64,000 nucleotides of DNA. Origin: Nemertoderma westbladi (Eukaryota > Animalia > Xenacoelomorpha). The notes under the pieces were generated by a model. The model saw only the letters and a program-made list of their open reading frames with translations. It made no database searches and was not told the DNA's origin. A program made the translations under genes and the position numbers. This document shows, in pieces, positions 29,254 to 51,900 of this stretch. Within the stretch, counting starts at the first letter, position 1. Each line of letters begins with the position of its first letter. The stretch lies in assembly GCA_032718475.1 (NCBI GenBank), contig JAUCBJ010005441.1:34251-98250 (forward strand). Direction: 5' to 3'.

Positions 29254-29445
29254 ATGGAAGTATCGATCACACCCATTGATATAATTCAAGTTGAGCCAGG
29301 AATCTGGCACGTCGAAGTTGAGGTACAAGGAACGAACGTTGGACGATTCAGGATTACTGTTCGGGTGGTCCAAGCTGAGTACAATACCTACGAGGAACTG
29401 TTTTACGACATCGCGTATCTAGCCATCGACGAGGCGTTACAATGA
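29254..29445 (+). CDS. 63-aa upstream ORF overlapping the gag start (ATGA stop-start)
   Basis: ATG-initiated; its TGA (29443-29445) overlaps the gag ATG (29442-29444); protein-like amphipathic pattern. Confidence 0.4.
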   Translation: MEVSITPIDIIQVEPGIWHVEVEVQGTNVGRFRITVRVVQAEYNTYEELFYDIAYLAIDEALQ

Positions 29446-32400
29446 CAACAAATAACGTATCCGATACCGACGAGATGGATCACCACACAGACTCGGAAGC
29501 CGACGAGGTACCAAACGTCAAGAACATGACCCGTCGGTTAGGGGCTCTTAAAGGCGGAGTAACCCGAGCGTATCAACGGATGGAGAAACAACTCAAAGGA
29601 GTCAAAACCCCCCTCAATGAGGTACAAACTCAGCTTCAAAGTATCCGAAATATCCTACAGCGGTACGAAAGAATGATACAGGTGTACCAAGAGCTCGTTC
29701 CCCCCACCGATCAGGAAAACTACCCCAAGTTGGAAGAACACGTTGTACATCTAGATGGGTTCCGCAAACAACACCGGAGGACCCTCAGCCTTGTGAGAGG
29801 CTATGAGGAACAGTATTACATGAGGGCTGACGCGGAATCAGTACGATCCTCCATCATCAGGACAGCAGTACATCGTAAGAGAACGGGGTCTGCTAGAAAT
29901 CAGCACTCCAGCGCTAGGAGCGAGATATCCGGCTCGGCGCGCAGTTCTCAAGGGGCGCCGCCACTCCGAGACCAACTGCGAGAACGGAAGGCATTAGCCC
30001 TCAAAGCTCGGATGGAAGATGAGTATATTCAACTGCAAGCCGAGCAAGATGTATTAGCCGCCGAAACACAAAAGCGAGAGGCCGAACAAGCGGCCGAACG
30101 GCAGGCCGAACAACGCGAACAGGAGGCCGAACAACATAGACGAGAAGCCGAATGGCAGGCCGAACAACGTAAACAGGAGGCCGAACAACATAGACGAGAG
30201 GCCGAACGACAGGCCGAACAACGCAAACAGGAGGCCGAACAACGCGGACGAGAGGCCGAACGAGAGATCGAACAACGTAAATGGGAAGCGGAAATGCGTA
30301 AACAACACGCCGAGGCCCAAGCAATTCTTATCCACAAAAAGAATGCGGATATTGCAAAACTCGCAGAATACGAAGCCGCACTTATAGAACGAGATATTCA
30401 ACTCTACGAGGACTGGGAAAGGGATATAGATCAGGAATATGAACCAATTCCGGTACCGGAGTTAGAAAAGTCATTTACACCAACAGCGGCGAAACCTCCG
30501 AAACCCGAGATCCTGCCTACCAAACAGTCTACGCTATCGGCACAAGCCCCGGTGTTCCATCCCCCACCAGCTACGCTAAAGAATGAGGAACCTTATTTCC
30601 CATCCAACACCACGACAGCGAGTGTACCCAAGTACGAGCCTGAAAGGGACTCGGAACGGGACGCCACTCCCCGATCTAACAACCCATTTACATCCACACC
30701 ACAAACTCGTAGCCGCGTCATTATTAAAACTCCACCTATTATTGATCCATCAAGTATGGGAGTGAGTGCCAATAACTATAACCCTCCGAGTCACTCTAGT
30801 TCAGACGACGTCAGCATCATCCGGGCGTTGGAGAACCGCCTTGCCATGCCTAAGATGGAGATTCGCACCTTCGAAGGAGATCCCGTCGATTACCTCAGAT
30901 TCAAGAAACGGTTCTTTGCACAGATCGGATCAACGGACATAGCCGACGCACAGAAATTGGTATATTTATCGCAATACCTGGGTGACAAACCACGCAGAAT
31001 TGTTGCATGTTTTGAAGGAGGTTCTCATGAGGCATACTATGACGCATGGAAAACTCTAGATAAAAGATACGAAAATACCAGAACTATAATTAATAAAACT
31101 CTAGAGAGACTGATACAGGACGCAGGATCACTAGGGGACCCACAGAACATACAGGAATTCTCCGACTCTATGAAGGATGCCTACTATACTCTGAAACCCT
31201 TAAATAAAGAGGACCAGGTGAACAACATTCTAAACCTCCGACAGATCGCCAAGAAGTTCCCCGGATGGCTACAAAGTAAGTGGGCTTATAAATGTGTAGA
31301 TCTCCGGCGCAGACATCCAGATCGAGATCCTAGCTTCCTTGAAATGTCGGCATTCCTGGACGATATCTCCGAAGCCATGAATGACTCGATGTTTTCAAAA
31401 CAAAGTCTCGCAAAGTTGGACGGAATAGAGAGCAACTCCAGGAGTAAGATAACCCCTCCGAAACCGAGATTCCGCCCCCCACCGGTAAGTACGATGGCCA
31501 TTACCATGGCCGAGGATTCCGACGACGAAGACTACGAGGAACCGACATCCGCCAAGGAATGGGCATGTTATCTCGCGAGTTGGGCACCCAAAAGGGAAGG
31601 CATCACAAATCCCCTGCTCTGTCTCTTCTGTGGGGAGAAACACAAAGTGGAATTCTGCAGAAAGTTTCAGTTCGCCGAACTCGTCCCACGCTTCGAGGCG
31701 ATAATGAAACACCGAGGATGCTTCCGGTGTCTTGGAACAGGTCACTATGTTCGGGAGTGCGACCAAAGATCATGCTGTACTGTCTGTAACGACCAACGCC
31801 ATCACACGCTCCTCCACATCCCCGCGAACTTCGATTTTACTACCCTCCCCTTTCGGATCGAAGCCAGGCGAAGAGGAGAAACAAACCACGTCTTCAAAGG
31901 AACCCGGACAACCCAATGGAGAGAAACCAACCCGTTTAAAATCTCAACCGATACACCACAAGTAACAAATATTTCGGCCACGAGTAATCTTATAAATCGC
32001 CGCTACATGGTCTTCGCAAAGGTAATCCCAGTAAGGATCCAAGGAGTCGGCAAATCTTTGACGACACTCGCATTCCTCGATAACGGGTCCGACGGAACCA
32101 TCATCGACCGGGATTTCCTCGAGCAACTCGGCCTAGAATATGAACCTTGTAAACGGCCCATACAAACCATCACCGATAACAGAGAGGTAGAGTCCGGGGA
32201 GGTGCAACTCCAGATGGAAGGAGTGATGAAGGGCTACGAAACGGTTAAGTTAACCATCAAGAACGCCTTGGTACACACAGACCTCCGGGTGCGGTTCCGA
32301 CAATCAGCCGAGTACGCCCCCCTCATACAATTGGACCGAGACGATGTAGACCTGAGGTGTCCGCAGTTGGACGTAAACCGCATCACCCTACTGATCGGAC

Positions 32401-33359
32401 TTGATACACCGGAATTACACATACCTACCGGAGATGTCGCCCGATCCATAAAGAAAGATGACGGCTTTTACGCTGAACGAACCATAATGGGATGGACCCT
32501 CTGCGGCATCAAGGAAGAAACTACTGACACCTATACATATCTTCCTAAATGTCAGAATAAAGAAAATGTAACATCCGTGGGATATTGCTCAGCTACAGAC
32601 CTCGATGAGGATTTATTTCTCGAAACCGAGAGAACCCAGCGGGAGATGACCGGATGCTTTAATGTGGAGACCCGAGAGTTTGCCGAGAAGGACGAGAATC
32701 CGTCCGAGGAAGATCAATATTGTACCAACATTTTTGATCAGGCCACGTTCAAAGACGGACATTGGCGCGTGCCCATGATTTGGTGGCTAATAAGATTGTT
32801 GATGATAATAATGACGTTGATAACATTGACACCATTAACGGGAGAGCACGGACTAATCTGCCGTAATACCCGGATGGCGAACGCCTCAGTTGAGTCCCTC
32901 ACTCCTAACCACCTACTGGGGAGACCCAAAACCCACGTTCTCCCAGAGACCATGTTCCCGGATCCCAGCGAGATCGCGAAACATACAAACTGGAAAAAGG
33001 CCCAAGCGTTGGCAGCGCATTGGTGGAGAATTTGGGCCCGGGAGTACCTCATAACCCTCCGGACCAGGAGGAAATGGAACAACACCTACCGGAACGTCGC
33101 AGTTGGCGACATGGTACTAGTTAGAGAAGATCTCAAAGACCGCGTCCACTGGCCTGTGGCGCGGGTCGTGACCATACACCCAAGCAAAGACGGACTTGCG
33201 AGGACTGTGAAGATACGAACGAAATCGGGCCACTACCAACGCCCCATCCAGAAGCTGTGCCTTCTTGAAGGCAATGATAGCGGTGACTCTACGAGAGGTG
33301 ATAAAATCCCTATTCAAGATCCTGCTGCGGACATTGGTGACAATTATAAATGTGTTTAA
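29442..33359 (+). CDS. Element B Gag (DUF1759-like, zinc knuckles) plus aspartic protease, fused in frame to the integrase C-terminal (DUF5641-like) tail; 1305 aa
   Basis: FEGDPVDYLRF; CLFCGEKHKVEFC, CFRCLGTGHYVREC, CTVCNDQRHHTLLH; AFLDNGSDGT; then LTPNHLL..WWRIWAREYL..VGDMVLV..DGLARTV..RPIQKLCLLE. No YVDD, RNase H or DDE core. Confidence 0.92.
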   Translation: MTTNNVSDTDEMDHHTDSEADEVPNVKNMTRRLGALKGGVTRAYQRMEKQLKGVKTPLNEVQTQLQSIRNILQRYERMIQVYQELVPPTDQENYPKLEEHVVHLDGFRKQHRRTLSLVRGYEEQYYMRADAESVRSSIIRTAVHRKRTGSARNQHSSARSEISGSARSSQGAPPLRDQLRERKALALKARMEDEYIQLQAEQDVLAAETQKREAEQAAERQAEQREQEAEQHRREAEWQAEQRKQEAEQHRREAERQAEQRKQEAEQRGREAEREIEQRKWEAEMRKQHAEAQAILIHKKNADIAKLAEYEAALIERDIQLYEDWERDIDQEYEPIPVPELEKSFTPTAAKPPKPEILPTKQSTLSAQAPVFHPPPATLKNEEPYFPSNTTTASVPKYEPERDSERDATPRSNNPFTSTPQTRSRVIIKTPPIIDPSSMGVSANNYNPPSHSSSDDVSIIRALENRLAMPKMEIRTFEGDPVDYLRFKKRFFAQIGSTDIADAQKLVYLSQYLGDKPRRIVACFEGGSHEAYYDAWKTLDKRYENTRTIINKTLERLIQDAGSLGDPQNIQEFSDSMKDAYYTLKPLNKEDQVNNILNLRQIAKKFPGWLQSKWAYKCVDLRRRHPDRDPSFLEMSAFLDDISEAMNDSMFSKQSLAKLDGIESNSRSKITPPKPRFRPPPVSTMAITMAEDSDDEDYEEPTSAKEWACYLASWAPKREGITNPLLCLFCGEKHKVEFCRKFQFAELVPRFEAIMKHRGCFRCLGTGHYVRECDQRSCCTVCNDQRHHTLLHIPANFDFTTLPFRIEARRRGETNHVFKGTRTTQWRETNPFKISTDTPQVTNISATSNLINRRYMVFAKVIPVRIQGVGKSLTTLAFLDNGSDGTIIDRDFLEQLGLEYEPCKRPIQTITDNREVESGEVQLQMEGVMKGYETVKLTIKNALVHTDLRVRFRQSAEYAPLIQLDRDDVDLRCPQLDVNRITLLIGLDTPELHIPTGDVARSIKKDDGFYAERTIMGWTLCGIKEETTDTYTYLPKCQNKENVTSVGYCSATDLDEDLFLETERTQREMTGCFNVETREFAEKDENPSEEDQYCTNIFDQATFKDGHWRVPMIWWLIRLLMIIMTLITLTPLTGEHGLICRNTRMANASVESLTPNHLLGRPKTHVLPETMFPDPSEIAKHTNWKKAQALAAHWWRIWAREYLITLRTRRKWNNTYRNVAVGDMVLVREDLKDRVHWPVARVVTIHPSKDGLARTVKIRTKSGHYQRPIQKLCLLEGNDSGDSTRGDKIPIQDPAADIGDNYKCV

Positions 33360-34049: not shown

Positions 34050-34612
34050 ACCCCTTCCACGACAAAGATTAGCCAAAGAAAATGATTGAATATAGTTGGA
34101 AACGATGAAAAGGATCAGACAACTCTACTATAAACCTGAATGATGACGCGTATACTGATGAAAATGTAATGATGCGCACCCTGGTGCTGCGCTTATAACA
34201 ATGATGATAGCCGGGGGGCTATAAACCCAATGATGATGTGGAAATAAATAAATGTGAAATAAATGGTGGAAATAAATGTGATGAAATATACGTGGAAATA
34301 AATGAAATAAGATGAAATAATAATGAAATGAAAAAAGACAAAAAAAAAAAAAAGGTATAAAAAAGGTCAAAGAAAAGAATTAGAAAAAAAAGAAAAGGAC
34401 AAAAAAGTCATAAAAAACTGGTTGGATATTATGTATAGCTATAGTAACTGTAAATGCTGAATGTATTAGCAATAAGATGATAGATGCCTATATAGCAATG
34501 TTATTAATAAACTGAATTAAATAAAAACTGAATTATTCTGCTATCGCTATAGTTTCAGACTTTCTGGACTTATAATTAACTGATCTAATTTGTAACGGAT
34601 ATAATCGTAAAT

Positions 34613-37228
34613 ATGGACCCAAATCGCCAAATTATCGGGGAATTACGTAACACGATAGATTTACTGGAATATTCGCAACCCGGATCCCCTGACTTTGATA
34701 CAAATTGGAGCACCCTGCTAAATGAGAACGTGCGAGTCATTAAATTCACCGGGCGAGAGGGACCGGATTCTAAGAATCTACGAGCCCTCCGGTTAGCCGA
34801 TGCTAGTACGAGACTGAAAAGAACTCGGAACGCAAAGGCAACCGGAGGGGACGATTCGTCGTTTTGGGAAACGTTCCGGCAGAGCGTCTACAGATCCCGA
34901 TGTTTGATCTACGACAACGAGGGAAACGCGACGCCCACCTCGAAAGCGATTACATTGGCGAGATGTCAAAGTTTCGTCGACGACAAGAGTACGTACCTCG
35001 CCCACTGGGGAAACCTGTCGGAGTGTACGGCGACGCTTCGAGAGGAACGCGTATCGATTATCCAAAACTGAGACGACTACCAAGAAAAGTACGGGGCGAA
35101 AGAATACGGTCGATCCTTAGTCGTCATCCTCGGAACCCTGGACGGTTTGGTACTGGTGTGCCGAATATTCCCGACACCCAGACAGGAAGTGCAGGCAGCC
35201 GGAGCGATCTGGTTGCTGCCTCCGGAAATCCAAAAGATCCTCTTCGACTTCGACGTCATTAAAATCGGGTCGGATATCAAGGCGGACGTCCGGAACGACT
35301 ACGCGAACGCCCCTGCAGGAAGAAACCGACGAGACGACCTCAACGCCCTTAGCCATTGCATCGACACTCAAACGCTACTAGCCTGGTTACGATTCGCCGA
35401 GTTCATGCGAGGATTCCAAGAGGTGAGACCGACGAAATCCGGGATCGGCTACCTCGCTGTGCTCAACGGCGGTATCGACTTCAAACCCCAGAAATTCCGG
35501 GACTATAATAAAATATACGGTGGATACCCGGGATTGGAAATAAAGAGCGAGCGAGAGGGTCGATGGAAGGACGTTGATCGGAAGTGGACGATACACCAAA
35601 GGTGGGAGAATCCTGATCGACGGAACTACATTTACGTCGTTATGGAGTGCTACACCGTCGCTAAGTTTATCTGTAAAACTCTCGATAACCTTATTACGGC
35701 GGTCCCCCTTTCCTTCGTCGACTACGACTGGAATGAGGTTATAAACCACGCGTTTAAAGCGGTCGAGAACATTACACCGGGAGAATCGAAAACGCCCGCC
35801 GTTATCGATTCCTGGGACGAGAGCGGACCTTACAACATCCCTACGATTACCGAACTTCTCGGTGCGGAGGAGCCTCTGATCTCCTCGGAAGGGGAAGAGA
35901 TATGGCTAAACGAGGGTGTTCTACTCTCCACCCCGAAGCGACAACTCGAGCCGGAGGCCGCGTATGGACCGGCCGCCAAATGGGTTGCCTCGGCCGAACC
36001 GATGAAGAGAGCAGGCGTTTACACCCCACGCGGCTCCGGTAGCCCCGCGAGGGAGGTAGCCACTACAGCTGCATTGAGCGACTTCGGCGACATATGCCAA
36101 CGGTTATCCCCGGGTGTCCATTTCCGGTATCCTTTCCCGGGTGGCGAAGATTGGTCGTCGGAGATCCCGAGTACCAGCCACCAACGGACCCGCTCAGCGA
36201 TACTGGTCGAGGAGGGACCCAGCGATGCGCCGACCCCCGACGATCTCCTCGGTATCCCTCCGTCTAAAACCCCGGCACCTCTTCGCCGACCAGCGGTGGC
36301 TACTACACCCGCCATTCCTCAGGACCCTATGCGACTAACCCGTTGGTACGCCGAGCAAACTGAATGGATCCACCGCCAGAAACGGTCATCCGAGTTGAGA
36401 CCAGCAGGACACAAAGAAGGTTATCGGAGCGAGAACCTACTACGCAAAAGCCTAGCATTCCGCGGGCTACCGACCACCGAGAATATTCCGAAGAGCGACC
36501 GACGACTCGAATACTACGTCGGCGTCCCGATTCCGATATTTCCTGGTCGTGAGATGCAGTTGGAGGTATGCGGCGACTGTGGTTCGGAGCAGTGCCCACG
36601 CGGCAGAAGGAATCGGGTTACCGATTCATGCCTCCAGCTCCTCGGGATACTCTATTGCCCATACTGCGCGACATCGGGCCACGACGTTTCCGTCTGTCCG
36701 ATCCTTTATAACCTCTGCACCACGTGCGGTTTCCGTGGACATTCCTCTAGCCCCCGCTGCTATATCAAATGTCCAACCAAAGACGTTACCGCTATGGGCA
36801 ATATGGTCATGTTTGAGACATACGCAAACAGCCACTTAAAGACCAAGGTTCGGAGAAACGCTCGGAATATCGCGCAGGAGATGGCGTGCGGATATTTCTC
36901 CTTCCCGGAATGCCTCCACACGTCGGCCACGCTACCTTTCCATTACGTGGATCTGCTACTGAGCGCCGGATTATTCGGTCCATTTGAAGTCATTAGACGA
37001 TTATACTCGTATAAAGAGGAGTTCGGTGACGGAGAATGGTTCCTAGAGGCACGCAAATCTGAGTTGGAGAGACGAACCGACATGATCCCGATGCCTTCGA
37101 AAGGAAGAGCCGCCAGGAGACAAGCCGAAGCGTTACTCACGATGGATGTTGACGCTCCTCTACCAGCCATAGCGATCGATGAGAGTCGACGGGCGAAGAG
37201 ACGAAAGGCGTATCAGAGAAAGAAATAG
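34613..37228 (+). CDS. Element B extra ORF: DEDDy/WRN-like 3'-5' exonuclease fold plus CCHC knuckles (871 codons, one in-frame TGA at 35069-35071)
   Basis: ORFs 34613-35071 and 35147-37228 are in the same frame. ExoI IYDNEG, ExoII LPPEIQKILFDFDVIKIGSDIKAD, ExoIII-like IYVVME; knuckles CPYCATSGHDVSVC and CTTCGFRGHSSSPRC. Confidence 0.75.
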
Positions 37229-37393
37229 TGGATCGGGATATTCCAGGAACATTTATCGAACATTTATTTTTATACAAACTCTAGGCCAAATTAATTAAAA
37301 ACTATGCAATATTAAATTTGGGTTTTTTATATTGGGAATGACCTACGCAAACTCAATCGACCGACAGACTTCACGAAGGTCATTGGGGGGGAC

Positions 37394-39005
37394 TGTTCGC
37401 GGTATTTCAACTTTCCATAACGCGAGTTGAATATTTTTGTATTTATTTAAAATTGATTATTCCGATATTACTACTGGGTGCGGGACCATGGGTTTTGGGC
37501 ACATTCAAGAAACTGGGGGCGATTTATGGGCGAACTTTGGGGCAACTTACAGGGTACGGGAATAATTTCATAGTTATAAGGGCCAGGGGGGGATGGAAAA
37601 TGCAAGCAGTATTCAGGTTAGCCTGAGTACTATTAGGCCCTGGCCAACTTCCTGCTGCCTGTAGGGGTGGATTTGGTAATGCGCCAGGCCTAAAGGACAA
37701 GGACTGCCCTTAGCAGTCCCTGGCCAACAGCAGCCATTACGAGACTGAAAAGAACTCGGACCGCTGACTGCTTGTGTCAGGGATTTGCGACGGGCACCGA
37801 CGGCCCCTTAGTAGCCAAGCCGTTCTGGTTCTCGATGATCGTTCCCTTCGGGGTTCGTGAGGGGTGGAGCGGACACGCGAACGGGTGGCCAACTAACGAC
37901 TGCCCCCTGACCTAAGCCGTACTGGTTCTCGATGACCGATCCCTTCGGGGTTCGTGAGGGGTGGGACGGACATGCGAAAGGGCTGGCCACAGGACGGGTT
38001 TGACGAGAACTGCCCTTAGCGGTCTCTGGTCAACGGCAGCTACTACGAGACTGAAAAGAACTTGGAACGCTGACTGCTTGTACTGGGATTTGCGACGGGA
38101 ACCGACGACAGACCCCTTAGCCAAGCCGTACTGGTTCTCGATGATCGTTCCCTTCGGGGTTCGTGAGGGGTGGAACGGACACGCGATGGGGTCGAAAGAC
38201 AAAGGACTAGACTCGACTAGACTCTACTGGCCTACCGACTGTTCGGAGCAGTTTCTCGGCTGCCGAAGCGACTACGAGCCTGAAACGGACTCGGAAAGCC
38301 TAGGTGGTTGGGTTTCTGTGATGAACCGACGGACCCCTAGCCAAGCCGTTCTGGTTCTCGATGATCGAACCCTTCGGGGTTCGTGAGGGGTGGAACGGAC
38401 ACGCGAACGGGTCCACCGACACGACAGACTCCTAGCCAAGCCGTACTGGTTCTCGATGACCGAACCCTTCGGGGTTCGAGAGGGGTGGTACGGATACGCG
38501 ACAGAGTCTACCGACTGGACCGACCCTTAGCCAAGCCGTGCTGGTTCTCGATGATCGTTCCCTTCGGGGTTCGTGAGGGGTGGAACGGACACGCGACAGG
38601 GTCAACCGACACCGACACTACGGCACTAAGACTGGGACCGAGGGAAAATCTGGGGAACATTAGGTAGGCTAAAATTCTGAGCAAACAGTGGGTTATTAAA
38701 TAATATACTGTAGGGATTTATATTATCGTGTATAATTATTGTGAATATTTGGTGTATATTGATTTGGGGAAGCCCAAAATTATTCTTAATCAAGTTTCAA
38801 TGATGTTGAACGGGTTTCAACTATAGGAAGTTACATTAAAGAGTATATCCAACTAATGCAGCTTTTTATCAACCGCAAACTTGCATCTCAGAAAATATTC
38901 CCTCCCCACAATCAATATCCGGTGACTGGCCGGGGCTCGGTGGTCTGTTAAGTCACGTCTCCAGCATCGGCGTTTTTCCCCCCTGGTGTAGGGATAACGG
39001 CAACA
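37394..39005 (+). repeat. 3' LTR of element B (second copy of the RNA-module array at 37705-38615)
   Basis: Direct repeat of 27391-29002, preceded by a PPT. Confidence 0.97.
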
Positions 39006-40600
39006 AAGCGAATATATTGCAGTATTGGTCCCTTATAACCGGTGAGGCAGAAAACAGTCTACGAGCAGACAAACTTCGATAAAACAAAATCCCGCGCAGC
39101 GAATCCTAAAATCAGGCTGACTCACTGACGGACTAAGGGGCTCGTATACTTTGCCGCGGTGTGATTTATATGGTTGGGCGAAAGAGACGCTAGCTAGATG
39201 CAGAGATTTGGAGATGTCTAACTAGCGGGCAAAGTGCAGTACGGACAAAAGTTAATTTTATATATTTTGAGGTGTAAATAATTTCTAACTCGCGTGTGTT
39301 AATTCTGAACAGTCAAAGCAGTTTTGCTCCTTCACATATATAATTACTGGGTATGGTGTACATTTTACGAATATTCTAATTTTGTAACTTGTAGGTCCAA
39401 TACTCACGAATGATAAGGTTCCTTCCCCTCTTGCGTATTTCCAGGACTCAAATTCAGGCATAAAGTTAATGCTACGCCCAGAATTCGGCAATTTTAATTT
39501 ACCAGGTCCCTAATACTAAGAAGAAATGTGTTAGTTTACTACAGTAGGCGTACGGTTACAAATAGCTATCCTGGCTCTTATCTAGAATTTTAGTCACCTA
39601 GGTAGGCTGGGTAACTTCCTATCAGGATGTTGGCGGGGACACGGTAGATGTTAGTATATCCCTAATAGCCTCAATTTATTTGCGCCTAGTCGTAAACTGC
39701 CCTACCGCCTGAACGGTACAATCCTAATTCAGGTGAAACACAGCAACCCTCCTAGCCTACAAGTTCTAATGCAATGGACACCGTTGCACTACAAATAGTC
39801 GCAAACGCACCTGTACTTAGCAAGAGTTAGGCGTACAGTTTGCTGCACCCTACCAATGTGTATGCCTTGTACTGGTGTGCCTACGTCCCATCTGCGTACT
39901 AGTATCTCTGCCTGAGCTCTCTCTCCTCTCCTCCCGTAGGAATATGAAGGCCTACTGCGGTTTTTCCTGAATTAAAACAGTACAGTCCCTAGGATGTAAT
40001 TTTAGGCGTACAGCGTGTCACTACCTCTACCTTTGATCTTTGGTCTTACGCTTAGGTAGCAAGGCATCGAACGCTGTCTAACCTTTCAGGCGATGGGCGA
40101 ATAACTAAGATGGTATTGCGGGTTGTCTCCTGTCTACATTCCCTTGATGTTCCCGTTCATTGCTGCGGCCCGAAGTCTAGCCGGCCATCCTGTCCCTTAG
40201 TTGAGTTCACCGTGGTGAAGCATGATAAAACAGATAGAAAAAGGGCAGATGTGACAAGTATTTCTAACTTTTATTACAAAATCAAACAATAACTATTATA
40301 CAATAAACAGAGATAGAAACTGAAGTGATAGAGTGTGATAGATAGAATATATAACTAATGAACGAAATCGCACCTTTTATACCAAATTTGTGCCGCAATC
40401 AATCGAGAAAATTCTCGATTGTTCTATAGGTTCTAACAGGTTTTTAAAGATAGCTATTGGTCCAGCTAATATATAACTTGCACGACATTGGTTACAATCT
40501 AATAACTACAGTCTCATTGGTTAATCTAGGTACAGACAAATGCAATTTAATTTGTAGCGGTCAATTTAAATGAGTTGAAATTCTGCACAAAAAATTATTC

Positions 40601-40677
40601 GCACTTACTAGGATTCGAACTCAATACCTACTACATATATAATTTCCAACGCTCTACCGACTGAGCTACTGAACCAC
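40601..40677 (-). promoter_or_regulatory. tRNA-like A-box/B-box (Pol III type 2) cassette inside LTR A; second copy at 57231-57299
   Basis: Minus strand reads GTAGCTCAGTCGGTAGAGCG...GAGTTCGAATCC, with no proper anticodon arm. Confidence 0.6.
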
Positions 40678-41597
40678 TTGACTAAACATCGTACAATAGA
40701 TATAACAAATACAAATGAGGACTCAAAGTAATCTTTTAGCAAAGTTAATTCGAATAAAATAAAATTTTGAAAATCCACGGCATTTAGGGAATATAATTCT
40801 ATACCGCTCCATGAAAACAGGATATTATCGTGCATAAAATATACGGTTTTCACCAATAATCAATCAAACTATAGAATACTTAGGGCGTACTTACATATTT
40901 ACAAATTAAATTTCAAACAATACTTCCTTTCTACATAATGATTCGATACAAAATAATTACAAATTCAAACTTTACATATTTAAGGCTTTACTAAGTAAAT
41001 TCAATATAAATCTAAATTAAATTCACCAATATAAATCTATTGCATCTCAATATTGCATAAATTCAAACAATTACAAATACAAATAAATGAAATCATAAGA
41101 AAGGCTCGCGAGTCTTCCATCTACTATTGCATCTCAAATATTGCATAAATTCAAATAATTACAAATACTTTCGTGCCTAAATGTAGATTGCATAAGTTCG
41201 GAATAATTACAAATATGAGTCTTTCTAAGCACAAAACTTTCTAACTATAAAACTTTCTAAATACAAAATATAACACCTTACAAATGAAACTATAAGAAAG
41301 GCCCACGAGTCTTCCATCTACTCTTACTTTCTATTTCACTGTAAATACAAATACTGCTTATAAGATATAAATTGCATAGTATTCGGAACAATATAAATTG
41401 CATAAGTTCGGAATAATCACAAATATAAAATATAAATCTTGCAAAATATAAATTCTTACTAAATATAAATCTTACTAAATATGAGTTCTTCCAGAATACA
41501 AAACTTACTAATTAAATATAAAACATATAACTCAAATAAATCACAAATTCACAAGAAAGGCTCACGAGTCTTCCGTCCACCCTTGCCCTCCCTTTTA

Positions 41598-44500
41598 TCA
41601 CTGTGTTGATCGAACCCTGCCGCGTCCTCGAAAACTGCGCACAGGTGACTTTGCTCGCGATATGGGACTCGTGGGGCGAGTCACTGGTTTCGTTTGGACG
41701 TTGAGAGACGGTGAGACTATTTCCTCGCAAATTCGTCTATTTGGCATCCCAAAACCTCGACCGATTCCTCGTGACCGATCAGTTGTCACTACGGTTGGTA
41801 AAACGTCTGGGAACGCGCGGGAAGCGGACGACGCAGACCCAAGAGTAGCTTGCACCCCCTTTTGATCAGCTGGTGTATGTCCCGATCCTCCTGTTGGTTC
41901 TCTAGGAAGCGATACCGTATCCCGAGTAATTCGAATAGTCGGCTCAACTCCCTTGCGTTCTTCTATATTAATAGACTTCTTTAATTGTTGGCTAACTTTC
42001 TGGACCCTTATGATCCTACCCTGTCCGTCCTCCCGAGGGTGACGTGCAGACGGCGCAACCGGAGTAGCTGGTATGTCGGTCGCCTCTAGGATCTCCTCTT
42101 CCTCGAATACGCTCGCTCGTATACGTTTGTGGTAAAACGCGGCTCGGTATGCCCATGCGACGGTTAACCAAGCTCCTTTATTCCGCTTTTCAGTTCGGAA
42201 ACGATCAAATTCACCATACGTGATACGATTTACGACTTTCTGAAAATTCCACGTGTTCTTGTTGTCTGGGTGAATCTGTAATAGATACTCGCGCACTACT
42301 CGGAATCCACTGTCGTGGGGCAAAATATCGACTACCTCGATAAGTTCGTCATATTGGGGCATAGCGGAGATGTATCCTTCCGACATCATCGTTTGGGGAT
42401 TTACCGCCCAAAATCCAAGATGCGCCCTCATCGGAAATCGTCTTCTTTGTGCCGATACATGTTCGTCGGCTAAATCTTCCCACTCATCGAATAATTTTCT
42501 CACGAGTTTTACAGATTCGTGTTCATAGGGTATGTCTCTTAGTTGGCATTCAGATGCTCGATGCCCTTTTATATTGCAATAAGTACATTGAGCCATAAAT
42601 CTCCAGCAAGTATAAAAGGTATGAGACCCTTGATCTCCACACCATCCACAGATTAGCTGAGTCGTAGTAATATGCTTTCCACTGCACTTGGTCGAATGAT
42701 GTCCAGCGACGCCACATTTACCACACATCGTATTGGCAGGGTACCACACTCGTTCGTATATAAGATCTCCAATCGGTCGAGCGCTTCCTCCCACACTATA
42801 ATCGTAATCATCTGGATCTATGGGTTGATAGGTTTCTGAGGGTTGTATACAAACTATAGCATCTGTTGCTTCAAGTTGTCGAATCTCCATCTGAGATTTC
42901 TTCGGGAGGTTCCTTTCTATCTCAAGAAGTTCCTCTAAAGGATCGTCAGTGATCGTAGTAGTTACTTCGAAATCATCACCAAGGTGACCGATAGGCGCGC
43001 GCGTCTGCCGTGATTCATCCGTAATCTCCACGATACGTTCTCCTTCATAGGGTAACAATGTAAACATAGATGGTCTTTCGATAAGAGATCCCGCACAGCG
43101 AAGATACACGTCTCGAAATATACTAAATCCTGCTCGAGTAAAGGCATTACACTGAGCGTCGGAGTTGTAGAAGGGTTCAAGGAATCGTCTAAACACGTCG
43201 GTATGAATTCTCCCTTCCATGTAGAACGTATGGTCTTCTCCGAGACAAAGTGGATGTCTTTTGAGAGTCCGAGACACAATGTCGGCGATTAGGCAAACAT
43301 TCACTGACGACTCTATTGCTAAATAATATTGTAGGACCGCTCTTGGAGGTGACGTAATAGCCCAATACACGCATCCTCTCCATTTAAGCTGTGATTCAAA
43401 CTCACTCATATCTGGAGTATCACCTTCTCCATAAGTCTCAATATACTTGGTTCTCTTACTTTCCTTATAATCCCAATTGAATAACAGGTAGGAAATGTAT
43501 CCAGTTCCAGTCTTCTGAGTATTATACTCACGAAAATATCCCTGTTCTATAGACCACAAAATAAGAGGTCGAGTGTCGACGTACGGTGTCGGTAGTCGGT
43601 CATCGCTGTCCGTCATGCCGGCGAAGTCGCTAATTAAGTCCTCCCTTACTCCTGATCCAATCTTTACAACAGTTTTATCTAAAATCATATTTCTTACCAT
43701 CTTCGGTAGCATTCTAGCGTCGATATTACAAGCTTGGTCCATCTTCTTTACTATGTCCGTGATGAGATGGTGTCGCTTTGTATTTGCTGGAGGTATCGGC
43801 ATTCGTTTGTCGCTCCTCTGTCTACTGAAAACGTGCAGGACTCCGTCCGCCGCTCTAATTTGTATAGTCTTAGAAGTCAAACTCTGTTGATGACTGCCGC
43901 CCTCGTTATCGTAAAACATGTAACCATTTTCCTGAAACGATCTAAACGTTCTATTCCATTCATCCAACAATTCTTCCGAAGGTTGCCAAATCTTCTCTAT
44001 GTCCTTATCATCTTCGAAACGAATAACCTTACCTCGCCAATCTGCGGCAATATCTGTATCCGACTCGAAGGTTCCGGTTCCAATCCATAAACGAATCGTT
44101 CTGGTTAAATATCCTTTCAAATTGCTCGGAGCTATATCAGCACCAGCTCTATCCAGTTCCTTAAAGTCTTGAATATGAGGTGGAACGTTATACACGACCT
44201 TTTGAGTAATATGTCTACGTAAATCATATATCTTACTCATATCGCTGAAAACAACTGCAGGAAGAAACTCCAAGTTTGAAATGATTTCTGGATGATCTAC
44301 GATGGGTATTTCGTACGTCGTATCCTGTCGGACTGGTATACTAATAGGAAAATTGAGTGTCATACTCAATGGTTTCGTAGTTGAAGTACTATATGGTTGC
44401 ATTTCTCTTGTCCTCTCCGGGGATGCAATCTGTAGTCTCTGAATAACATTTTGAGCAAAGTTTATGCTCTCGAAAACTTCCGGTGTCATCTCCTTAGCTG

Positions 44501-45320
44501 GAGTTTGATCGTGTGATGTCCAATGGTAAGGTAGGCTCGCGAGTCTTCCGCCCCATTCTTCCATCTCACCTTTCTCGAAAGCCTTGTAGGCTCTGTATAG
44601 GCTAAGAGTTTCTTTCTTTTCGCGGGTTGACTGATTCGCCTCGTCCAGCGTAAGTTCAAATACATCGGGTTCAACAACCTTAGGTGGGTAAACGACAGTT
44701 TCTCCCGCCTTTGGTCCGGTCATAGCAAATGAATGATATGGATTCGATAAAGGATACCCTCCTTCCTGGTAGCGTAGTTGTTGATGGTTCGAACACCTCG
44801 CCAATATCGGTTCGGGATTTTCCTTATTCAAACGCATCGGAATCGCATTTCGTTGTTCGCGCATACAAGAACCGCATTGATAATAAAGTTTATAAACTGA
44901 AAATGCTTCCTTTGTTTCTCTATCGTCCCCTCGAGTTCGTCTGTAAAGGTGCATTCCATCGAATTCATCTCGTACCGCGGGCATAGGTTCGTGCGCCTTT
45001 AGGTATTGCATGGTATGATACAAACGACTAATTTCAGTATCGGGGTCTTCGCTAATGTCTCCCGTATCACACAAAGTGTCGTACGGGTAAAGTTCATTGA
45101 AGGTTTTGCGTAAACTTTTGATTCTTTCATTTAATGCGTTTTGCCTTCTCTTTAATACATTCGAGTCATATTTAGTTCTCGCGAGTTTCGCAGTACTTTC
45201 TGATAATTCTTTTATACCAAATATAGTGTAGTCCTTGGCTCCAAATCTTTCGAATGGCGCTGCTGCTTCCTCTTGGATATCATATCCCCATCTCGGCTCT
45301 CCATGTATCTCCTTCTCCAT
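41598..45320 (-). CDS. Element A extra ORF, intact, 1240 aa: DEDDy/WRN-like exonuclease fold plus three CCHC-type knuckles
   Basis: FYDNEG; LPKMVRNMILDKTVVKIGSGVRED; VDTRPL; KTGTGY; YYLAIE; CGKCGVAGHHSTKC, CGWCGDQGSHTFYTC, CTYCNIKGHRASEC. Collinear with B's extra ORF. Confidence 0.8.
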   Translation of the reverse strand: MEKEIHGEPRWGYDIQEEAAAPFERFGAKDYTIFGIKELSESTAKLARTKYDSNVLKRRQNALNERIKSLRKTFNELYPYDTLCDTGDISEDPDTEISRLYHTMQYLKAHEPMPAVRDEFDGMHLYRRTRGDDRETKEAFSVYKLYYQCGSCMREQRNAIPMRLNKENPEPILARCSNHQQLRYQEGGYPLSNPYHSFAMTGPKAGETVVYPPKVVEPDVFELTLDEANQSTREKKETLSLYRAYKAFEKGEMEEWGGRLASLPYHWTSHDQTPAKEMTPEVFESINFAQNVIQRLQIASPERTREMQPYSTSTTKPLSMTLNFPISIPVRQDTTYEIPIVDHPEIISNLEFLPAVVFSDMSKIYDLRRHITQKVVYNVPPHIQDFKELDRAGADIAPSNLKGYLTRTIRLWIGTGTFESDTDIAADWRGKVIRFEDDKDIEKIWQPSEELLDEWNRTFRSFQENGYMFYDNEGGSHQQSLTSKTIQIRAADGVLHVFSRQRSDKRMPIPPANTKRHHLITDIVKKMDQACNIDARMLPKMVRNMILDKTVVKIGSGVREDLISDFAGMTDSDDRLPTPYVDTRPLILWSIEQGYFREYNTQKTGTGYISYLLFNWDYKESKRTKYIETYGEGDTPDMSEFESQLKWRGCVYWAITSPPRAVLQYYLAIESSVNVCLIADIVSRTLKRHPLCLGEDHTFYMEGRIHTDVFRRFLEPFYNSDAQCNAFTRAGFSIFRDVYLRCAGSLIERPSMFTLLPYEGERIVEITDESRQTRAPIGHLGDDFEVTTTITDDPLEELLEIERNLPKKSQMEIRQLEATDAIVCIQPSETYQPIDPDDYDYSVGGSARPIGDLIYERVWYPANTMCGKCGVAGHHSTKCSGKHITTTQLICGWCGDQGSHTFYTCWRFMAQCTYCNIKGHRASECQLRDIPYEHESVKLVRKLFDEWEDLADEHVSAQRRRFPMRAHLGFWAVNPQTMMSEGYISAMPQYDELIEVVDILPHDSGFRVVREYLLQIHPDNKNTWNFQKVVNRITYGEFDRFRTEKRNKGAWLTVAWAYRAAFYHKRIRASVFEEEEILEATDIPATPVAPSARHPREDGQGRIIRVQKVSQQLKKSINIEERKGVEPTIRITRDTVSLPREPTGGSGHTPADQKGVQATLGSASSASRAFPDVLPTVVTTDRSRGIGRGFGMPNRRICEEIVSPSLNVQTKPVTRPTSPISRAKSPVRSFRGRGRVRSTQ

Positions 45321-45981
45321 AATTAGATGTGTAGTTACATAATCATACTACTAGAGGGAATACAACAGAGTTTGTAGTTAGTTGTGAGGAGACGTGAGAG
45401 TTTTCGTCTGCCCTTTTGGCTCGACAACGCTCTAACCTCCTACCCATAGCCTAAGATCTAGGGTTTCTTTAATGACACGCTGCTTCTTATCTAAAATTTT
45501 TTGCCGAAATAAAAACGAATTTGGGCTAAACTGGCTGTGAGTCTAAAATACTCACTTTTTGATCCCAAACTATTATCAGAAAATAAGCAGTCAAGAATTA
45601 GTAATAAATATAGGGAAGTCTATTTTTTGACGTAACTTATTGAAACAAGACCGTGTAAAATTTAATTAAATTTTTAAGAAAGGCTCGCAAGTCTTCCTCT
45701 CTTGTTTCTCTAATTTTAAGTTCCACCCGACTGTACCCTGAAATCTATTCACTGGAGAAAATTTTAAAAATTTTTCAAATCCAAATGGATTGTCTAAAAT
45801 TTCGAAAATGTCTCAATATTGTGAGTTCCAAGTAGAATTCCATTTCTTATACCTACAAATCCCGCTCCTATGTGATACATAAGGGTACTACCCTCAATGT
45901 TCACATATAAAGACAATGGAATTCTACCGCTGTCCTTACTATGGTGTACAGGTACGTGGAAATCTATTTGTAAACTCCTAA

Positions 45982-48900
45982 TTATTTACTAACATTAGTT
46001 GGAGATTTGTAGTCTCCAGACTCGTTACGAGTCTCTTCAAGAAGTACGAGACGTTGAGTCGGTCTGTCAACTGTACGACCGTCAATTGTCCGTACCGTCA
46101 CAGTTCTTGTCACTCCATCCATAGATGGATGTGTGGCTAAAATTACACCTGTTATCCAGAAGCGTCTTTTTAGATTCACTTCCGCTAACAGCACGTGATC
46201 TCCCGGCTTTAATGCGCGGGTATTATTGTACCAGTTTGTTCTGGCAGAAATAGAGGGCAAATAATGGTTTTGCCATATTTCCCAGAATTTGTTAGCCAGT
46301 AGTTGCGTGATTTTCCACGCTTTTCTACCGTAGCTATCGCTTTCTATTGGAATAGAAATAGGCGTCAAAGTTGTCGGTGCCTGCATAAGCAGGTGTGCCG
46401 GTGTCAAAGCAAACTGAGATTGTTTGTCATCGGGTACTAATACTATTGGTCTAGTATTTAGTATTGCCTCGATTTCAACAAACAGTGTTGTCAGTTGGTC
46501 GTCTGTCAATATGTGGTTTACTGGAATGACCTTTGCCATGGCTGTTTTTATAGATCTAATCAATCTCTCCCAGACTCCGCCTCTCCATGGACTATCTGGA
46601 GGATTAAACTTCCAAACAATCTTGTAAGGACGTAGTTCGTTTGAGATTTGATCATGATCTAATTTCTTAAAGGCTCTAGCAATCTCATTTCGAGCACCAA
46701 CAAAGTTTGTCCCTTGGTCTGAGTACAAGCATTTCACTAGTCCGCGTCTAGCGATAAATCGCCGCAATGCTAGTATAAACGCGTTGGTGGAAAGATCCAT
46801 CACACGTTCAATATGAACTGCCCTACTGGACATACATGTGAAAATCAGTCCCCAGCGTTTTACTAGTATACGTCCACGTTTCGTATGTATGGGACCAAAG
46901 CAATCAATTCCAGTCTCTGTAAAAGGTGGTCTGAATGCTTGAAGTCGTGCTTGTGGAAGTTCACTCATTTCTTGGGTACCTATTCTAGAATGTACCTTTT
47001 TACAAATAATACAAGTACGTGTCACTGAACTTAACGCTTTACTGGGTCTAATTAATACAAATCTTGTACGTAAGTAGGAAAGACAGTGGTGTCTTCCAGC
47101 GTGTTTCAGATGTAAATGTGCGTCCAGTATCATTGCACGTTGTAGTTCGTGATGCTGTGGTATTATTATTGGGTACCTAAAGTTTGTGTTAAAGTCAATG
47201 TTTTGAAGCCGAGATTTATGACAAATTAAGCCATTATAAATTATCGGACTCCAACTCAATATTGGTGACGACTTGATTGGTTGACCTTGATTTATAGATG
47301 TGAATTCGCGCGCGAAATATCGCAGTTGGTAATGGCGAATTAATTTAATTTCACACCTGTCAATCTCAGTCAATGTAAGTCGACGTGTAAAGTCGCGTTT
47401 GCCTTTAACGTATTGTACAAAACGTACAATCCACGCTAATTTTCGGCAAGCGTTTGTCCAAGAGTCTGTTAAGTTTACAATACGGTCGACGTGAGTATTT
47501 ATGACGTCATCAGGTAAGTCAATGGAGAATTTGGAAGGTTTTGATTTACTAGAAGGGCCCACGGGTCCGCCGGTAAGTATTCCCTTGTTGACTGTTGATC
47601 CGTCCGGGTCTACAAGTAATTTGTCCTTCCTTGTTTTCTTACCTTGATTGTCAGTACTTTGTAAGTCGATCGTTAATGGTGGTTTGAACTCTATGGGGTC
47701 AGTGGGTTTCGGTAAACTTAATTTTCTGCCGATATTAATCCCAGGTTTCACCGTAGGTTGCAAGTTTGGTATGTCTCTTGAGCGCAAAGTAACACCTGTA
47801 TTTACATTTACGTAGGTACTACCCACATCTGTAATACATGAGGTTTCACCGTGCTTATTGTTGCTCAAGTGTGTCAAATTTGGTAGTTTGTCAATACAAG
47901 GCCGCTCCAATAGAGAAACTGCGGCTTCACTATTTGTCAAAATGTCACTAGTGTCTAGTAGAACATTTTGTGACATGTCTGGTAAAATGTTTCACGGAAC
48001 ATCCGGCGAAATATCTAGTGACGTGTCTGGCAAAACGTCTGGTTGACCGTCTAGTAACGCGTCTGGTTGTTTGTCAATAGAAGGCCGCTCCAATAGAGAA
48101 ACTGCGGCTTCACTATTTGTCAATATGTTACTAGTGTCTGGTAGAACATTTTGTGATATGTCTGGTAAAATGTCTGGTTGGCTGTCTAGTAACGTGTCTG
48201 GTTGACCGTCTGGCGATATGTCTGGTGTAGAAAGGCTCGCAAGTCTTCCGTTCTTGACTTTGGAAGTTATATCTTTCCATTTCGCCTTCGGTTTTTTCTT
48301 AAGTTTGGCCGCCGTCCTTTTCTTTGCTTTCCCTTTCTTTGGTTTTTTAATTTCCGCGTCTTTAGGGATAGTGTTAGACTTGTTGTCATATAGTGGCGGC
48401 CAATGTTGTACTGATCTTTGCAAGAATTGTGGTCCGTGTTGCCAAAATTCTTTGTTCTCCGGTTCACAGAATTCCTCAGGCATCATTCCTCTTGACGCAA
48501 TATCGGCTGGGTTTTGTGGTCCGGGACAATGTCGCCAATCTTCCTTTATTGAACGGTCTAGAATTTCTGCGCGACGGTTAGCTACGAATGTCTTGAATTC
48601 AAGTGTGTCGTTGTTTATGTAAAATAAAACCAACGTCGCGTCAGTCCAATAAAATATCTGTAAACTTGACTGTAGTTCTGTCTGTATAAGGTTCACGATT
48701 GTGGTTGACAGGGTTGCGGCTTGTAGCTCAGCTCGTGGTGTCGTCATATACTTAGTAGGCATTGTTTTTGCCTTAGAAGTAATGAGCGAAACATCGAATT
48801 CTTCTGAGTCTACTTGTCTGCGCAAGTACGCTGCCACACCAAAGCCGTTGTCACTGGCGTCGGAAAAACAATGTAATTCCAAGTTGTCAGGAAACGTTGT

Positions 48901-51900
48901 TTGTAATGGAAAGTATACTCTGGGTATGGAATAATCCTCTAACGAAGATAATTCTGCCTCCCAGGTTTTCCATAAGTCCACTTGGTCTGATGAGATCGGC
49001 TCGTCCCATGTTAGTCCATCCTTCCAAATACTGCGCATATAAATTCTGGCTTGCAGTATTATTGGACTGATGAATCCTAATGGATCGAACAATCGGCTCA
49101 ATTTTGACAAGCATGATCTCTTTGTCAGTGTGTTTTCTTGACTGTCCAGTCTCACCTTCACTCGAAAGTTGTCCGTGTTTGGGTCCCAAAAGAGCCCCAA
49201 CACCTTGGTCGTCGGTAGTGGTTCGAACACTAGGTCAATGTCACCACCTCCACGCTCAGTCGTTCCGAATGAGTCTACCAATTCGGCACTGTTTGAGGCG
49301 AATTTGGTGAGGTTAAAACCTCCGCCCGCTAAGCAGTCCCGTAATTGATGTGCTACTGTTATAGCACGTTCTACTGTGTCACAACTCTGTAAACCATCGT
49401 CTACGTAAAAGTCACGTTCTACGATCTTAATTATCTCTGGGTCATATATGTGTTTCTGATCCCTAGCGGCTTGCTTTAGGGCGTACATCGTACAGTTTGG
49501 GCTGTCCCTGGCACCGAAAACGCGAACTTGCATTTGGTAAGTCGCCGGTGGTAGACTTAAGTCTCCTTCCGGATACCAGAGGAACCTCAAACTGTCTCTG
49601 TCTCGCTCTAACGCTCTCACTTGGTGAAACATAGCTTCGACGTCACAAGTAAAGGCTACTTGACGCTGACGGAAGCGCATAATCACCCCCATAAGATAAT
49701 TATTCATGTTTGGTACATCCATTAACTCGCTATTGAGGGACATTCCCTCAAACAGAGCCGCACAGTCATTGACTACACGTACTTTGTCTGGTTTGTCGGG
49801 GTGTCTCACGAAGTGATGTGGCAAGTAGTATGTCTGGTCAGTCACTATCTCTGGGTTAGTCATTCGGATAGCGTATCCCTTGGACAAATACGTCTCCATC
49901 TGAGTGTTATGGGCTTTCTCGTCCTTTAATAGACGTTGTCGTATCGAGTGTAAACGTCTTAAAGCTAGTGGATAGTTATTTATGAGTTTAGGACGTTGGT
50001 TACGCCATAGCATCCCTACCTCATAATGTCCGTCCTCTGTCTGGCGGATAGTATCTTCCATGATCTTCAAAGATTGTTTCTCTTGTTCCGACATACATGG
50101 TTCGTAGCTACCAGGTTCAGCTGTATCTTGTTCTAACCACCTGATAGTCTTTTCCGTTAATTCTTTGTCCAATGCAGCTTGTTCCACTTGATGATTTCTT
50201 AACGCGTCGTCATCGATATCGATGGGCATTGTTGAGGTTATTGGTGTAGGTAGACTCGCAAGCCTTCCGGCGTTATCATCTGTCGTCGATGGAATCTCTG
50301 GCTGACTCGTCTTCTCCCCAAGTTCTAAACTCACCTGGTGGATTAGCTGCTCCTTATGACTTATCATACTAGTTACACATGTCGTGTCATGTTTTGTCGA
50401 ATGTAGTGTAGTATGGTCCACGTCGTGTGAAAAGGAATGAGTCGACGTTGTAGTTAATAAACTACATGTACTTTGTATATCGTCTTCCTCGTCACTTATA
50501 TCCAGTGTGCGCACAGGCGCTCGAGTATACCACCCTATCGGCGTTCTACAGGCGTATGCGTTTCCCGCTACGACTGCCGATGGTCTGGTTTCCCACACTT
50601 GATGTAGGTTGAATTGGTCTGTCCCGATCAGCATTGCTACCGATCTATAATTGACAGGACATTCAGGTACACCAAGGTGTCTGAAATACTTACGGTCCTC
50701 TAAGGATTGTTCTGGGACAGGACCTAGTAGGTTACTAAAGTCCTTTGTGGCCGCAAAGGTTAAATCCGCGATTGCGATTTCGGAATTGCGATTTCGGAAG
50801 AAGAGTGTCTAAGTTCAACTTAACTCGTGTTACTGGTATTGCACGTTGTCCATGCATACTACTTACGGTGTAACTGACGTTCTTACCTTGTCTAAGATCC
50901 GTCACGACATCAGCTATCTGCTCATCCACGTAGCTGTGAGATGAGGCTGAATCTAGAATAGCATAGATTCTCTTGCTCCCCTTTGTGCCAGTAATCTTAA
51001 TCGGAATTACGCTGAAACCTTTTAATTGGTCAGTCGTCAGAAGCGCGATCAATGGTTGTTCGTCTCCATCTGAATATACGTCGTCGTCTTCCGACTCTTC
51101 GTCCGACGATCCGGATTGTTCTGAGAAGCAATCCCTAATATGTGTCACGAAAGTTGGAGTCGTTTTTGATTCTCGATTATTATACGCGGTGTTGCATTTT
51201 GCTGCAGCTTCCGGGTGTTCCCTGGCGAAGCGTTTGGTTGGCGTATGGCTGTCTGTGTGGAGCAGACCGTCGTGGTTGCGTCCACAGGATGGACAAGTGT
51301 CGGTATTTGGGCAATCTTTGCGGACGTGTCCGTGTCGTGTACACCGCCAACAAGAGTCCAATGGCCGTATCTGCAGCCGTCGTTCTTCCGAGTTTAACTC
51401 GCGAAACTGTCGACAACCTCTCAACTTGTGACCGATATACCGCTTGCCTAAATGCTCGCAGTATTGGCAGCCGCTGAAGTCTGTACTGAGTTGCTGTCTA
51501 GTCTGTTTTATTCCAATGGGCGCAGATACCCTACTACCGTCCGAGAATTGTCGTGTTTCCGTCGGTGTGGCGTAAGTGGCCGTCTTGGTGGATGTTGTCT
51601 GGGGTTTTTGTCGGTTTGAGGATGGCAAGGTGATTCCTTCTGCTAAGATGTGCTGGTCAGTGTAGTTGGATCGAGTTTCTACCACTGCTTCCCTGGATAT
51701 CAAAAGGTACACATCTTCCAGTTTTAAGAATCCACCCCGCTCTTCCCGCTGGTATTCGATCTTCCTCCACTCCCGACGAAGTCGATGGTGGAGTCTTCAT
51801 ATGATCTTTAATAATACGGTAGGGGTATTCCCGTATTCAAGTTGTCCAATAGATCTTAATGTAGAGATAGCGTTCTTGATTTCGTCAGCCAGTTTCAATA

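Follow-up and report, generated by a model that had tools for sequence, protein, structure and literature searches.

We analyzed 64,000 nucleotides of the genome of Nemertoderma westbladi (assembly GCA_032718475.1, contig JAUCBJ010005441.1, positions 34,251 to 98,250 of the forward strand; hereafter the window), in which self-comparison and reading of the junctions revealed two nested long terminal repeat (LTR) elements of the BEL/Pao type, A and B. Each carries, in the env position, an accessory open reading frame (ORF) encoding a DEDDy-like exonuclease domain followed by CCHC-type zinc knuckles. Element A occupies 57425 to 27286 of the minus strand; its terminal repeats are 99.2% identical, and a 5-bp target-site duplication (57426-57430 and 27281-27285) bounds it. 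Its 5′ terminal repeat occupies 55536..57425 (minus strand). Element B (27391-39005, plus strand) lies inside the 3′ LTR of A, about 105 bp from the end of that repeat, and splits it into a main part at 39006..40803 (minus strand), 99.2% identical to the 5′ copy, and a displaced last part at 27286..27390 (minus strand), 100% identical to the end of the A 5′ repeat. B has its own 5-bp target-site duplication (27386-27390 and 39006-39010), a 1612-bp 5′ LTR that begins TG and ends CA (27391..29002, plus strand), and a 3′ LTR (37394..39005, plus strand) that differs from the 5′ LTR by 6 mismatches and is preceded by a G-rich polypurine tract. Both elements thus show the paired LTRs and target-site duplication of BEL/Pao elements. 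Without B, A measures about 18.5 kb, and the terminal repeats of the two elements measure 1.6-1.9 kb.

The coding content also places both elements in BEL/Pao, as a preliminary description of this DNA had proposed. The gag-pol region of A (45982..54556, minus strand) encodes DUF1759 (Pfam E 8e-10), a reverse transcriptase (RT) with YVDD, Peptidase_A17 (7e-43), integrase, and DUF5641 (2e-21), and it lies in five pieces owing to three in-frame stops and a single change of frame. A 110-bp duplication (94.5%; window 47881-48173) spans the stop between its RNase H and integrase parts. In B, gag-protease is fused in frame to the integrase C-terminus in a single 1326-codon frame (29379..33359, plus strand; DUF1759 E 1e-15, DUF5641 3e-28). 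RT, RNase H, and the integrase core are missing, also as first described, and the deletion junction falls between ~32780 and ~32895. Read depth and loose ends suggest that other copies of B hold different sequence at this gag-protease/DUF5641 junction. Inspection of the bases directly after the repeat showed no primer-binding site (PBS) starting TGG in A or B. As separate observations, the terminal repeat of A begins TA, not TG, and a PBS-like, TGG-starting 18-mer lies ~80 nt inside it (window ~55598-55620 and ~27348-27370, minus strand; repeat bounds from the target-site duplication).

In both elements the accessory ORF sits after the DUF5641 integrase end. That of A (41598..45320, minus strand) is open over 1240 amino acids (aa) and comprises, in order, an N-terminal region (residues 1-426), the DEDDy-like exonuclease domain, an acidic linker, three CCHC-type knuckles, a conserved helical block, and a low-complexity R/S/P tail. 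The exonuclease domain (residues 427-697; 43230..44042, minus strand) contains what we take to be the ExoI (D471/E473), ExoII (D561), and ExoIII (Y666/E670) motifs. Two of the knuckles (residues 866-925; 42546..42725, minus strand) are canonical C-x2-C-x4-H-x4-C and one has x5, and their matches to Pfam zf-CCHC (E 0.038-0.17) fall under the cut-off. The N-terminal 426 residues (window 44043-45320, minus strand) returned no match in Pfam and PDB searches. This region, which B and the relatives described below lack, looks selected, 9 of the 13 variants listed there being silent, and it holds a CxxC...CxxH pattern.

The B ORF (34613..37228, plus strand; 871 codons) is homologous to that of A, with motif residues D101/E103, D225, and Y341/E345 and a knuckle cluster at 36569..36760 (plus strand) in which the first knuckle lacks its His, the second is canonical, and the third has x5. 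Codon 153 of this ORF (35069-35071), which lies after the DxE motif and before ExoII, is an in-frame stop; because the first base of this codon differs in all of the read depth in four of four runs, the stop is private to the copy in the window. Compared with its relatives, B is also longer by ~50 residues in the interval from DxE to the following strand. Contigs ~99% and ~83% identical to B are colinear across these residues, which are therefore a trait of the B family. Loss of the B ExoI strand by deletion was considered but found no support, as other copies have no insertion listed there and the same two contigs are colinear. The motifs in A and B, the positions of their ORFs, the common motif order, and an acidic E at ExoIII in both (E670 and E345) all agree with the preliminary description. 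Its statement that B keeps the gene stands insofar as a homologous ORF is present; with a stop at codon 153, that ORF is not intact.

BLASTP aligned the two proteins in the exonuclease part (E 3e-9) and in the knuckles (E 3e-4), and a degenerate DNA pattern for the ExoII region matched exactly two sites in the window, one in A and one in B, with 0 expected from 100 shuffles. Neither protein has a signal peptide, membrane anchor, or hydrophobic N-terminus; the maximum 19-residue hydropathy is 1.38 in A and 2.09 in B, where the peak lies in the nuclease core. Lacking the features of a retroviral-type env gene, the accessory ORF of A and B is not env.

We found 13 homologous proteins elsewhere, encoded at 10 metagenome loci or represented by the proteins P0003, P0004, and P0009. 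A search of 1.84 billion representatives gave 5 matches, among which P0003 and P0004 contain both the nuclease motifs and the knuckle block; P0009 was reached via P0004, and P0001 and P0002 (gag-type knuckles) and P0005 (pilin) were unrelated and dropped. The ExoII-region DNA pattern hit 48 metagenome loci, 10 of which encode family members; the other 38, which are other proteins or chance matches, were discarded. The 10 include near-copies, L021 being 98% identical to L042 and L010 99.7% identical to L041. Leave-one-out family profiles recovered both proteins, B with E 1.6e-37 and A with E 2.3e-47, although the DxE strand of B was not aligned by its profile and is placed less surely. Homologous-protein searches with A and with the family alignment returned nothing, which means little because the alignment search missed its own queries P0003 and P0004. 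Scans of viral contigs yielded no family member.

The gene is repeatedly linked to BEL pol. Coding DNA is present upstream in 7 of the 10 metagenome loci, and in all 7 a BEL pol or DUF5641 end lies on the same strand: Peptidase_A17, RT, and integrase in L010, L011, L016, L041, and L042 (the L011 group), and a DUF5641 end in L020 and L049. The count excludes L021, which starts inside the ORF, L015 and L036, which are too short, and P0003, P0004, and P0009. Five deep lineages with the gene linked to BEL can be recognized (A, B, the L011 group, L020, and L049), and their integrase ends are 29-42% identical. In a nuclease tree that omits L010 and L021, has long branches and an outgroup chosen by the same pattern, and contains no animal EXD2, WRN, or Mut-7, a single branch separates 13 family domains from 19 other exonucleases (support 98/95). 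Within it, A, B, and P0004 group together (86/81, unstarred), and a small integrase tree also joins A and B (93/95, with a long-branch warning). The agreement of the two trees fits co-inheritance without proving it. The repeated pol linkage and the separate branch sustain the earlier view of an old accessory gene of BEL lineages.

Two side observations concern neighbors of this family. In L049, a GDSL/SGNH-like ORF (L049:1260-2651; PF13472 E 3.4e-5, under the cut-off) lies between the integrase and the altered-site DEDDy ORF, with a good predicted splice acceptor ahead of each. L013 and L040 (PF01612 plus DUF6729), together with L025 and L033, contain large ORFs with the same pattern, and all four fall outside the BEL family.

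The domain resembles WRN/EXD2/Mut-7-type DEDDy exonucleases, as had been proposed from its motifs. PF01612 clusters account for 24 of 30 ESM Atlas matches to A residues 425-720 (score 0.93), and a profile of 13 family sequences matches human EXD2 (E 4.3e-11), the structure 7C42 (2.4e-5), Egalitarian (4.7e-4), and WRN (0.005), as well as LIN28. An AlphaFold model of A residues 427-1040, built from 11 sequences, predicted a DnaQ-like fold and was aligned by VIA-align to EXD2 (Z 9.9, root-mean-square deviation [rmsd] 4.3, 118 aa) and Nibbler (Z 9.1, rmsd 3.8, 174 aa). Both A and B have the ExoI D-x-E and the ExoII D. They are classed as variant DEDDy-like domains because A and B, like P0004, have Y-x3-E in place of the ExoIII Y-x3-D. 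Neither A nor B gave any hit to Pfam PF01612, and 1 of 11 alignment members matched weakly (L020, E 0.005); single-sequence PDB searches gave no match, a viral-structure search gave none at E <= 0.001, and a single-sequence AlphaFold model reached a predicted local distance difference test (pLDDT) score of 32. Weighing against the functional reading that we give below are the low confidence of the 11-sequence model (mean pLDDT 47.7, core 70-82), a VIA-align background of Z 7-8 over which Z 9-10 is just modestly higher, and a Foldseek search that found no match at E <= 0.001 (best EXD2, E 2.5e-3). Judged from sequence and model comparisons together, membership of the domain in the DnaQ/DEDDy group, of which NrnC, Orn, and RICE1 are DEDD members, is secure; its exact donor is not.

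Three forms of the active site occur in the family. The canonical tetrad and Tyr are found in the L011 group, L020, and P0003. E replaces D at ExoIII in A, B, and P0004, a substitution that is not general in the family; A and B are nonetheless acidic at all four positions. The site is altered in L015, L036, L049, and P0009, in which N occupies ExoI, E occupies ExoII, and YxxxD is missing; these members retain the knuckles where their contigs extend that far, and they form one well-supported group (100/100). These forms bear on whether the protein is mainly a non-catalytic RNA-binding adaptor that, like CERV or the DEDD-fold RNA-transport adaptor Egalitarian, would route element RNA from the nucleus or into the germ line, its catalysis vestigial. 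The altered-site group with its knuckles kept points in that direction, as do E at ExoIII in A, B, and P0004, the profile matches to Egalitarian and LIN28, the basic R/S-rich tails of several members, and the example of CERV, a spliced env-position gene needed for genomic RNA (gRNA) export (PMC10309623). However, the four acidic residues and Tyr are intact in the L011 group, L020, and P0003, within the L011 group the exonuclease is under tighter constraint than any other part of the protein, and A and B have kept all four acidic positions. We regard an adaptor role as rather unlikely, if far from negligible.

The accessory gene is under purifying selection. Among 360 differences between reads and A, 40 were listed, 29 of them in ORF codons. 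Over residues 1-1060, 18 of 22 listed variants were silent versus 33% expected (p 3e-6); the exonuclease accounted for 8 silent of 8, and in the tail 2 of 7 were silent. For B, 40 of 207 differences were listed, 26 in the ORF, and after exclusion of 10 poorly supported differences and of 2 that fall in the stop codon, 10 of the remaining 14 listed variants were silent (p 0.004). Indels lay outside the ORF in 12 of 12 cases shown for A (of 21; p 6e-9) and in 11 of 12 shown for B (of 13). Among L011, L016, L041, and L042, the ratio of nonsynonymous to synonymous divergence (dN/dS) was 0.08-0.16 for the nuclease; the corresponding values were 0.14-0.25 for the knuckle block and 0.28-0.38 for the tail. 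Two properties that the preliminary description had put forward for checking, a DnaQ fold and selection on the gene, were both found, the former in a low-confidence model and the latter as a silent excess in A and B and low dN/dS among relatives. Separately, synonymous divergence (pS) in L011, L016, and L041 pairs was 0.48-0.61 in the exonuclease domain versus 0.76-0.82 in pol; module swapping between families or codon constraint may be involved.

These data bear most directly on the idea that a captured host gene rides in the elements as a neutral passenger. The stop in the B copy and the existence of deleted copies of the A ORF are in keeping with that idea. So is the open frame of A: at the gag-pol break rate, the probability of no break in 3.7 kb is 0.18, and the intact gene beside a broken gag-pol, correctly observed earlier, is not significant and is no evidence alone. 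The accessory ORF3s of rotifer retroelements are described as showing no departure from neutrality within the genome (PMC5408684). Yet variants in A and B are preferentially silent, dN/dS is 0.08-0.16, listed indels avoid the ORFs, and the gene has been kept across lineages whose integrase ends are 29-42% identical. The selection data largely refute the neutral-passenger idea, and we consider it very improbable.

Sequence signals point to a probable separate mRNA for the accessory gene, which would arise by splicing onto an acceptor in some lineages and from an internal promoter in another. In A, a candidate branch point, pyrimidine tract, and 3′ splice acceptor (45351..45385, minus strand) are predicted 30 nt upstream of the accessory ATG; by a simple home-made count, which we used for all acceptors, 9 of 463 YAG sites in the A internal region score equally or higher. 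In A, L015, L020, and L049, a strong pyrimidine tract and AG precede the ATG by 0-30 nt, with 1 of 65, 3 of 48, and 5 of 123 sites scoring as high in the latter three, respectively. Because a stop and indels separate acceptor and ATG in A, its accessory gene would not be expressed as a Gag fusion through this acceptor. In the L011 group, acceptors are poor. There, a TATA box with a TTAGT 32-34 nt downstream that we take to be Inr-like gives a single match per contig, in the spacer before the ORF, in all five of the five loci whose contigs include that spacer (L011:3085, L016:7737, L041:3973, L042:3194, and L010:2158), and is conserved in an alignment of otherwise divergent DNA. Other conserved spacer blocks of this group are a CGCGCGCG run and a AGGGGAATAGGAG block, and a similar CG run is present in the L049 and L015 spacers.

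We lean, tentatively and at somewhat less than an even chance, toward the accessory protein being a trans-acting RNA 3′-end nuclease or binder that counters host RNA silencing. By analogy with trypanosome RNase D (TbRND), its knuckles would hold single-stranded RNA so that the 3′ end enters the active site. As targets we envisage transcripts of the element that are U-tailed or sliced, or else precursors of small RNAs; altered-site members would bind without cutting. TbRND, whose structure is 7C42, combines an exonuclease with CCHC knuckles that bind RNA and trims U-tails (PMC7797062). Nibbler trims PIWI-interacting RNA (piRNA) 3′ ends (PMC13269885), and arenavirus ExoN offers a viral precedent of counter-defense (PMC7968707).

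To the points on the model already given, others that weigh against a silencing-directed RNA nuclease must be added. A and B may cut poorly or not at all because of E at ExoIII and, in B, the insertion of ~50 residues; four relatives have an altered site, so that part of the family can do without catalysis. DNA is also acted on by EXD2 and WRN, which give the best matches in sequence. The B acceptor is weak, 22 of 175 sites scoring as high, and contigs of one run guessed to be RNA, which may be DNA, are unspliced across both putative acceptors. Lastly, the rotifer DEDDy ORF3s are reported to have no clear link to copy number (PMC5408684).

Alternatively, the protein may be packaged with genomic RNA via nucleocapsid-like knuckles and help replication by trimming cDNA or primer ends or by proofreading reverse transcription. 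The EXD2 and WRN group also acts on DNA, with WRN acting on single-stranded DNA (PMC5408684), the knuckles resemble those of retroviral nucleocapsid, and nidovirus ExoN proofreads (PMC7968707). A and B are, moreover, long: the ~18.5 kb of A and the 1.6-1.9-kb repeats of both exceed the 4.2-10 kb and 0.2-1.2 kb given for Belpaoviridae (PMC8742986), and both elements lack a canonical PBS right after the repeat. Set against this, the gene stands apart from gag-pol with no Gag fusion through the A acceptor, the L011 group has a normal TGG-starting PBS and polypurine tract, and altered-site members would be incapable of such a job. We judge a replication role unlikely. Self-priming of A and B was also entertained and rejected, as the L011 group has a normal PBS and the matches in A and B extend over just 11-13 nt and are AT-rich.

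A broader version of the counter-silencing reading is possible, if doubtful. It holds that a widespread BEL/Pao lineage carries a Nibbler/RNase D-like nuclease directed against piRNA or small interfering RNA (siRNA), that two expression routes, splicing and an internal Pol II promoter, evolved independently, that the enzyme has repeatedly decayed to a non-cutting RNA 3′-end binder, and that a pool of DEDDy and GDSL genes is common to these elements and to Gypsy and Penelope-like elements.

The closest known counterparts are the DEDDy ORF3s already known in rotifer Gypsy and Penelope-like elements, namely Juno and Vesta (Gypsy-type) and Athena and Terminon (Penelope-like) (Rodriguez et al. 2017, PMC5408684). 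As described there, they share with A and B an env-position DEDDy ORF that encodes no transmembrane segment, the replacement of a tetrad D by E (at the fourth acidic position here, DEED in rotifers), and co-occurrence with a GDSL ORF, here in L049. They differ in their hosts, which here are BEL/Pao elements ('BEL' and 'Pao' occur 0 times in that main text), in the three CCHC-type knuckles and conserved C-terminal block found here ('CCHC' occurs 0 times there, while a Cys-His-Cys motif is remarked in Vesta2/5), and in the purifying selection found here. Cer1, earlier cited as a further DEDDy precedent, found no support as one: the ORF in its env position, CERV, encodes a factor for gRNA export, and the main texts of PMC10309623 and PMC3315495 contain neither 'exonuclease' nor 'DEDD'. 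CERV is similar in being a non-env, Cys-rich, env-position accessory protein made from a spliced mRNA, splicing in A and several relatives being predicted only; it differs in belonging to a Gypsy element, in having no exonuclease domain described in the main text, and in its shown role in gRNA export (PMC10309623).

TbRND (PDB 7C42/7C45) likewise has a DEDD exonuclease followed by CCHC knuckles, and both of its domains are included in the profile match (E 2.4e-5), but it is a mitochondrial enzyme of the cell, and it has four knuckles and a short linker (PMC7797062). Its layout may be convergent, because most of the score is due to the knuckles (22.5 bits versus 5.7 for the nuclease). A Euglenozoan PF01612+zf-CCHC family is the top ESM Atlas cluster for P0004 (0.86), a lead only. 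EXD2, WRN, and Mut-7 (Nibbler) of PF01612 provide the best profile and structural matches of the nuclease, whereas the element domains fall on their own side of a branch against 19 exonucleases, in the tree from which animal EXD2, WRN, and Mut-7 are absent. With Belpaoviridae, the elements share the order Gag, protease, RT, RNase H, integrase, as well as DUF1759, Peptidase_A17, DUF5641, LTRs, and 5-bp target-site duplications. Beyond the excess in total and repeat length of A noted above, they differ in their accessory gene: the profile of the International Committee on Taxonomy of Viruses names just gag, pol, and an env-like gene (PMC8742986), and de la Chaux and Wagner 2011 (PMC3118150) do not use the word 'exonuclease'. 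A full-text literature search found no DEDDy ORF in BEL/Pao; the phrase 'BEL Pao' cannot match 'BEL/Pao' in part of this searching, subscription journals, Repbase, Dfam, and GyDB were outside its scope, and a database annotation may exist.

Our results add BEL/Pao to the hosts of DEDDy cargo and reveal purifying selection, for which no sign was found in the rotifer study. They touch on the question of whether enzymes directed against piRNA or siRNA silencing are encoded by animal retrotransposons. The naturally occurring canonical, E-variant, and altered-site versions allow side-by-side comparison, and the predicted use of an internal TATA-Inr promoter versus splice acceptors bears on how LTR elements express captured genes.

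Outside the two elements, the window contains a DNA-transposon-like element (6381-12214) with long inverted arms (6424-6935 / 11660-12171, 96%) that consist of 92- and 51-bp repeats. The arms enclose a two-frame gene with helix-turn-helix and integrase-core (rva_4) parts and a 497-codon ORF with no Pfam match. A 36-bp tandem array of ~114 copies (12386-16463) yields a 967-codon open frame, and a similar G+C-rich stretch lies at ~22000-26000. A single-exon, intact-looking sulfotransferase ORF (20772-21815, plus strand; PF00685 E 4.5e-73) is probably a host gene.

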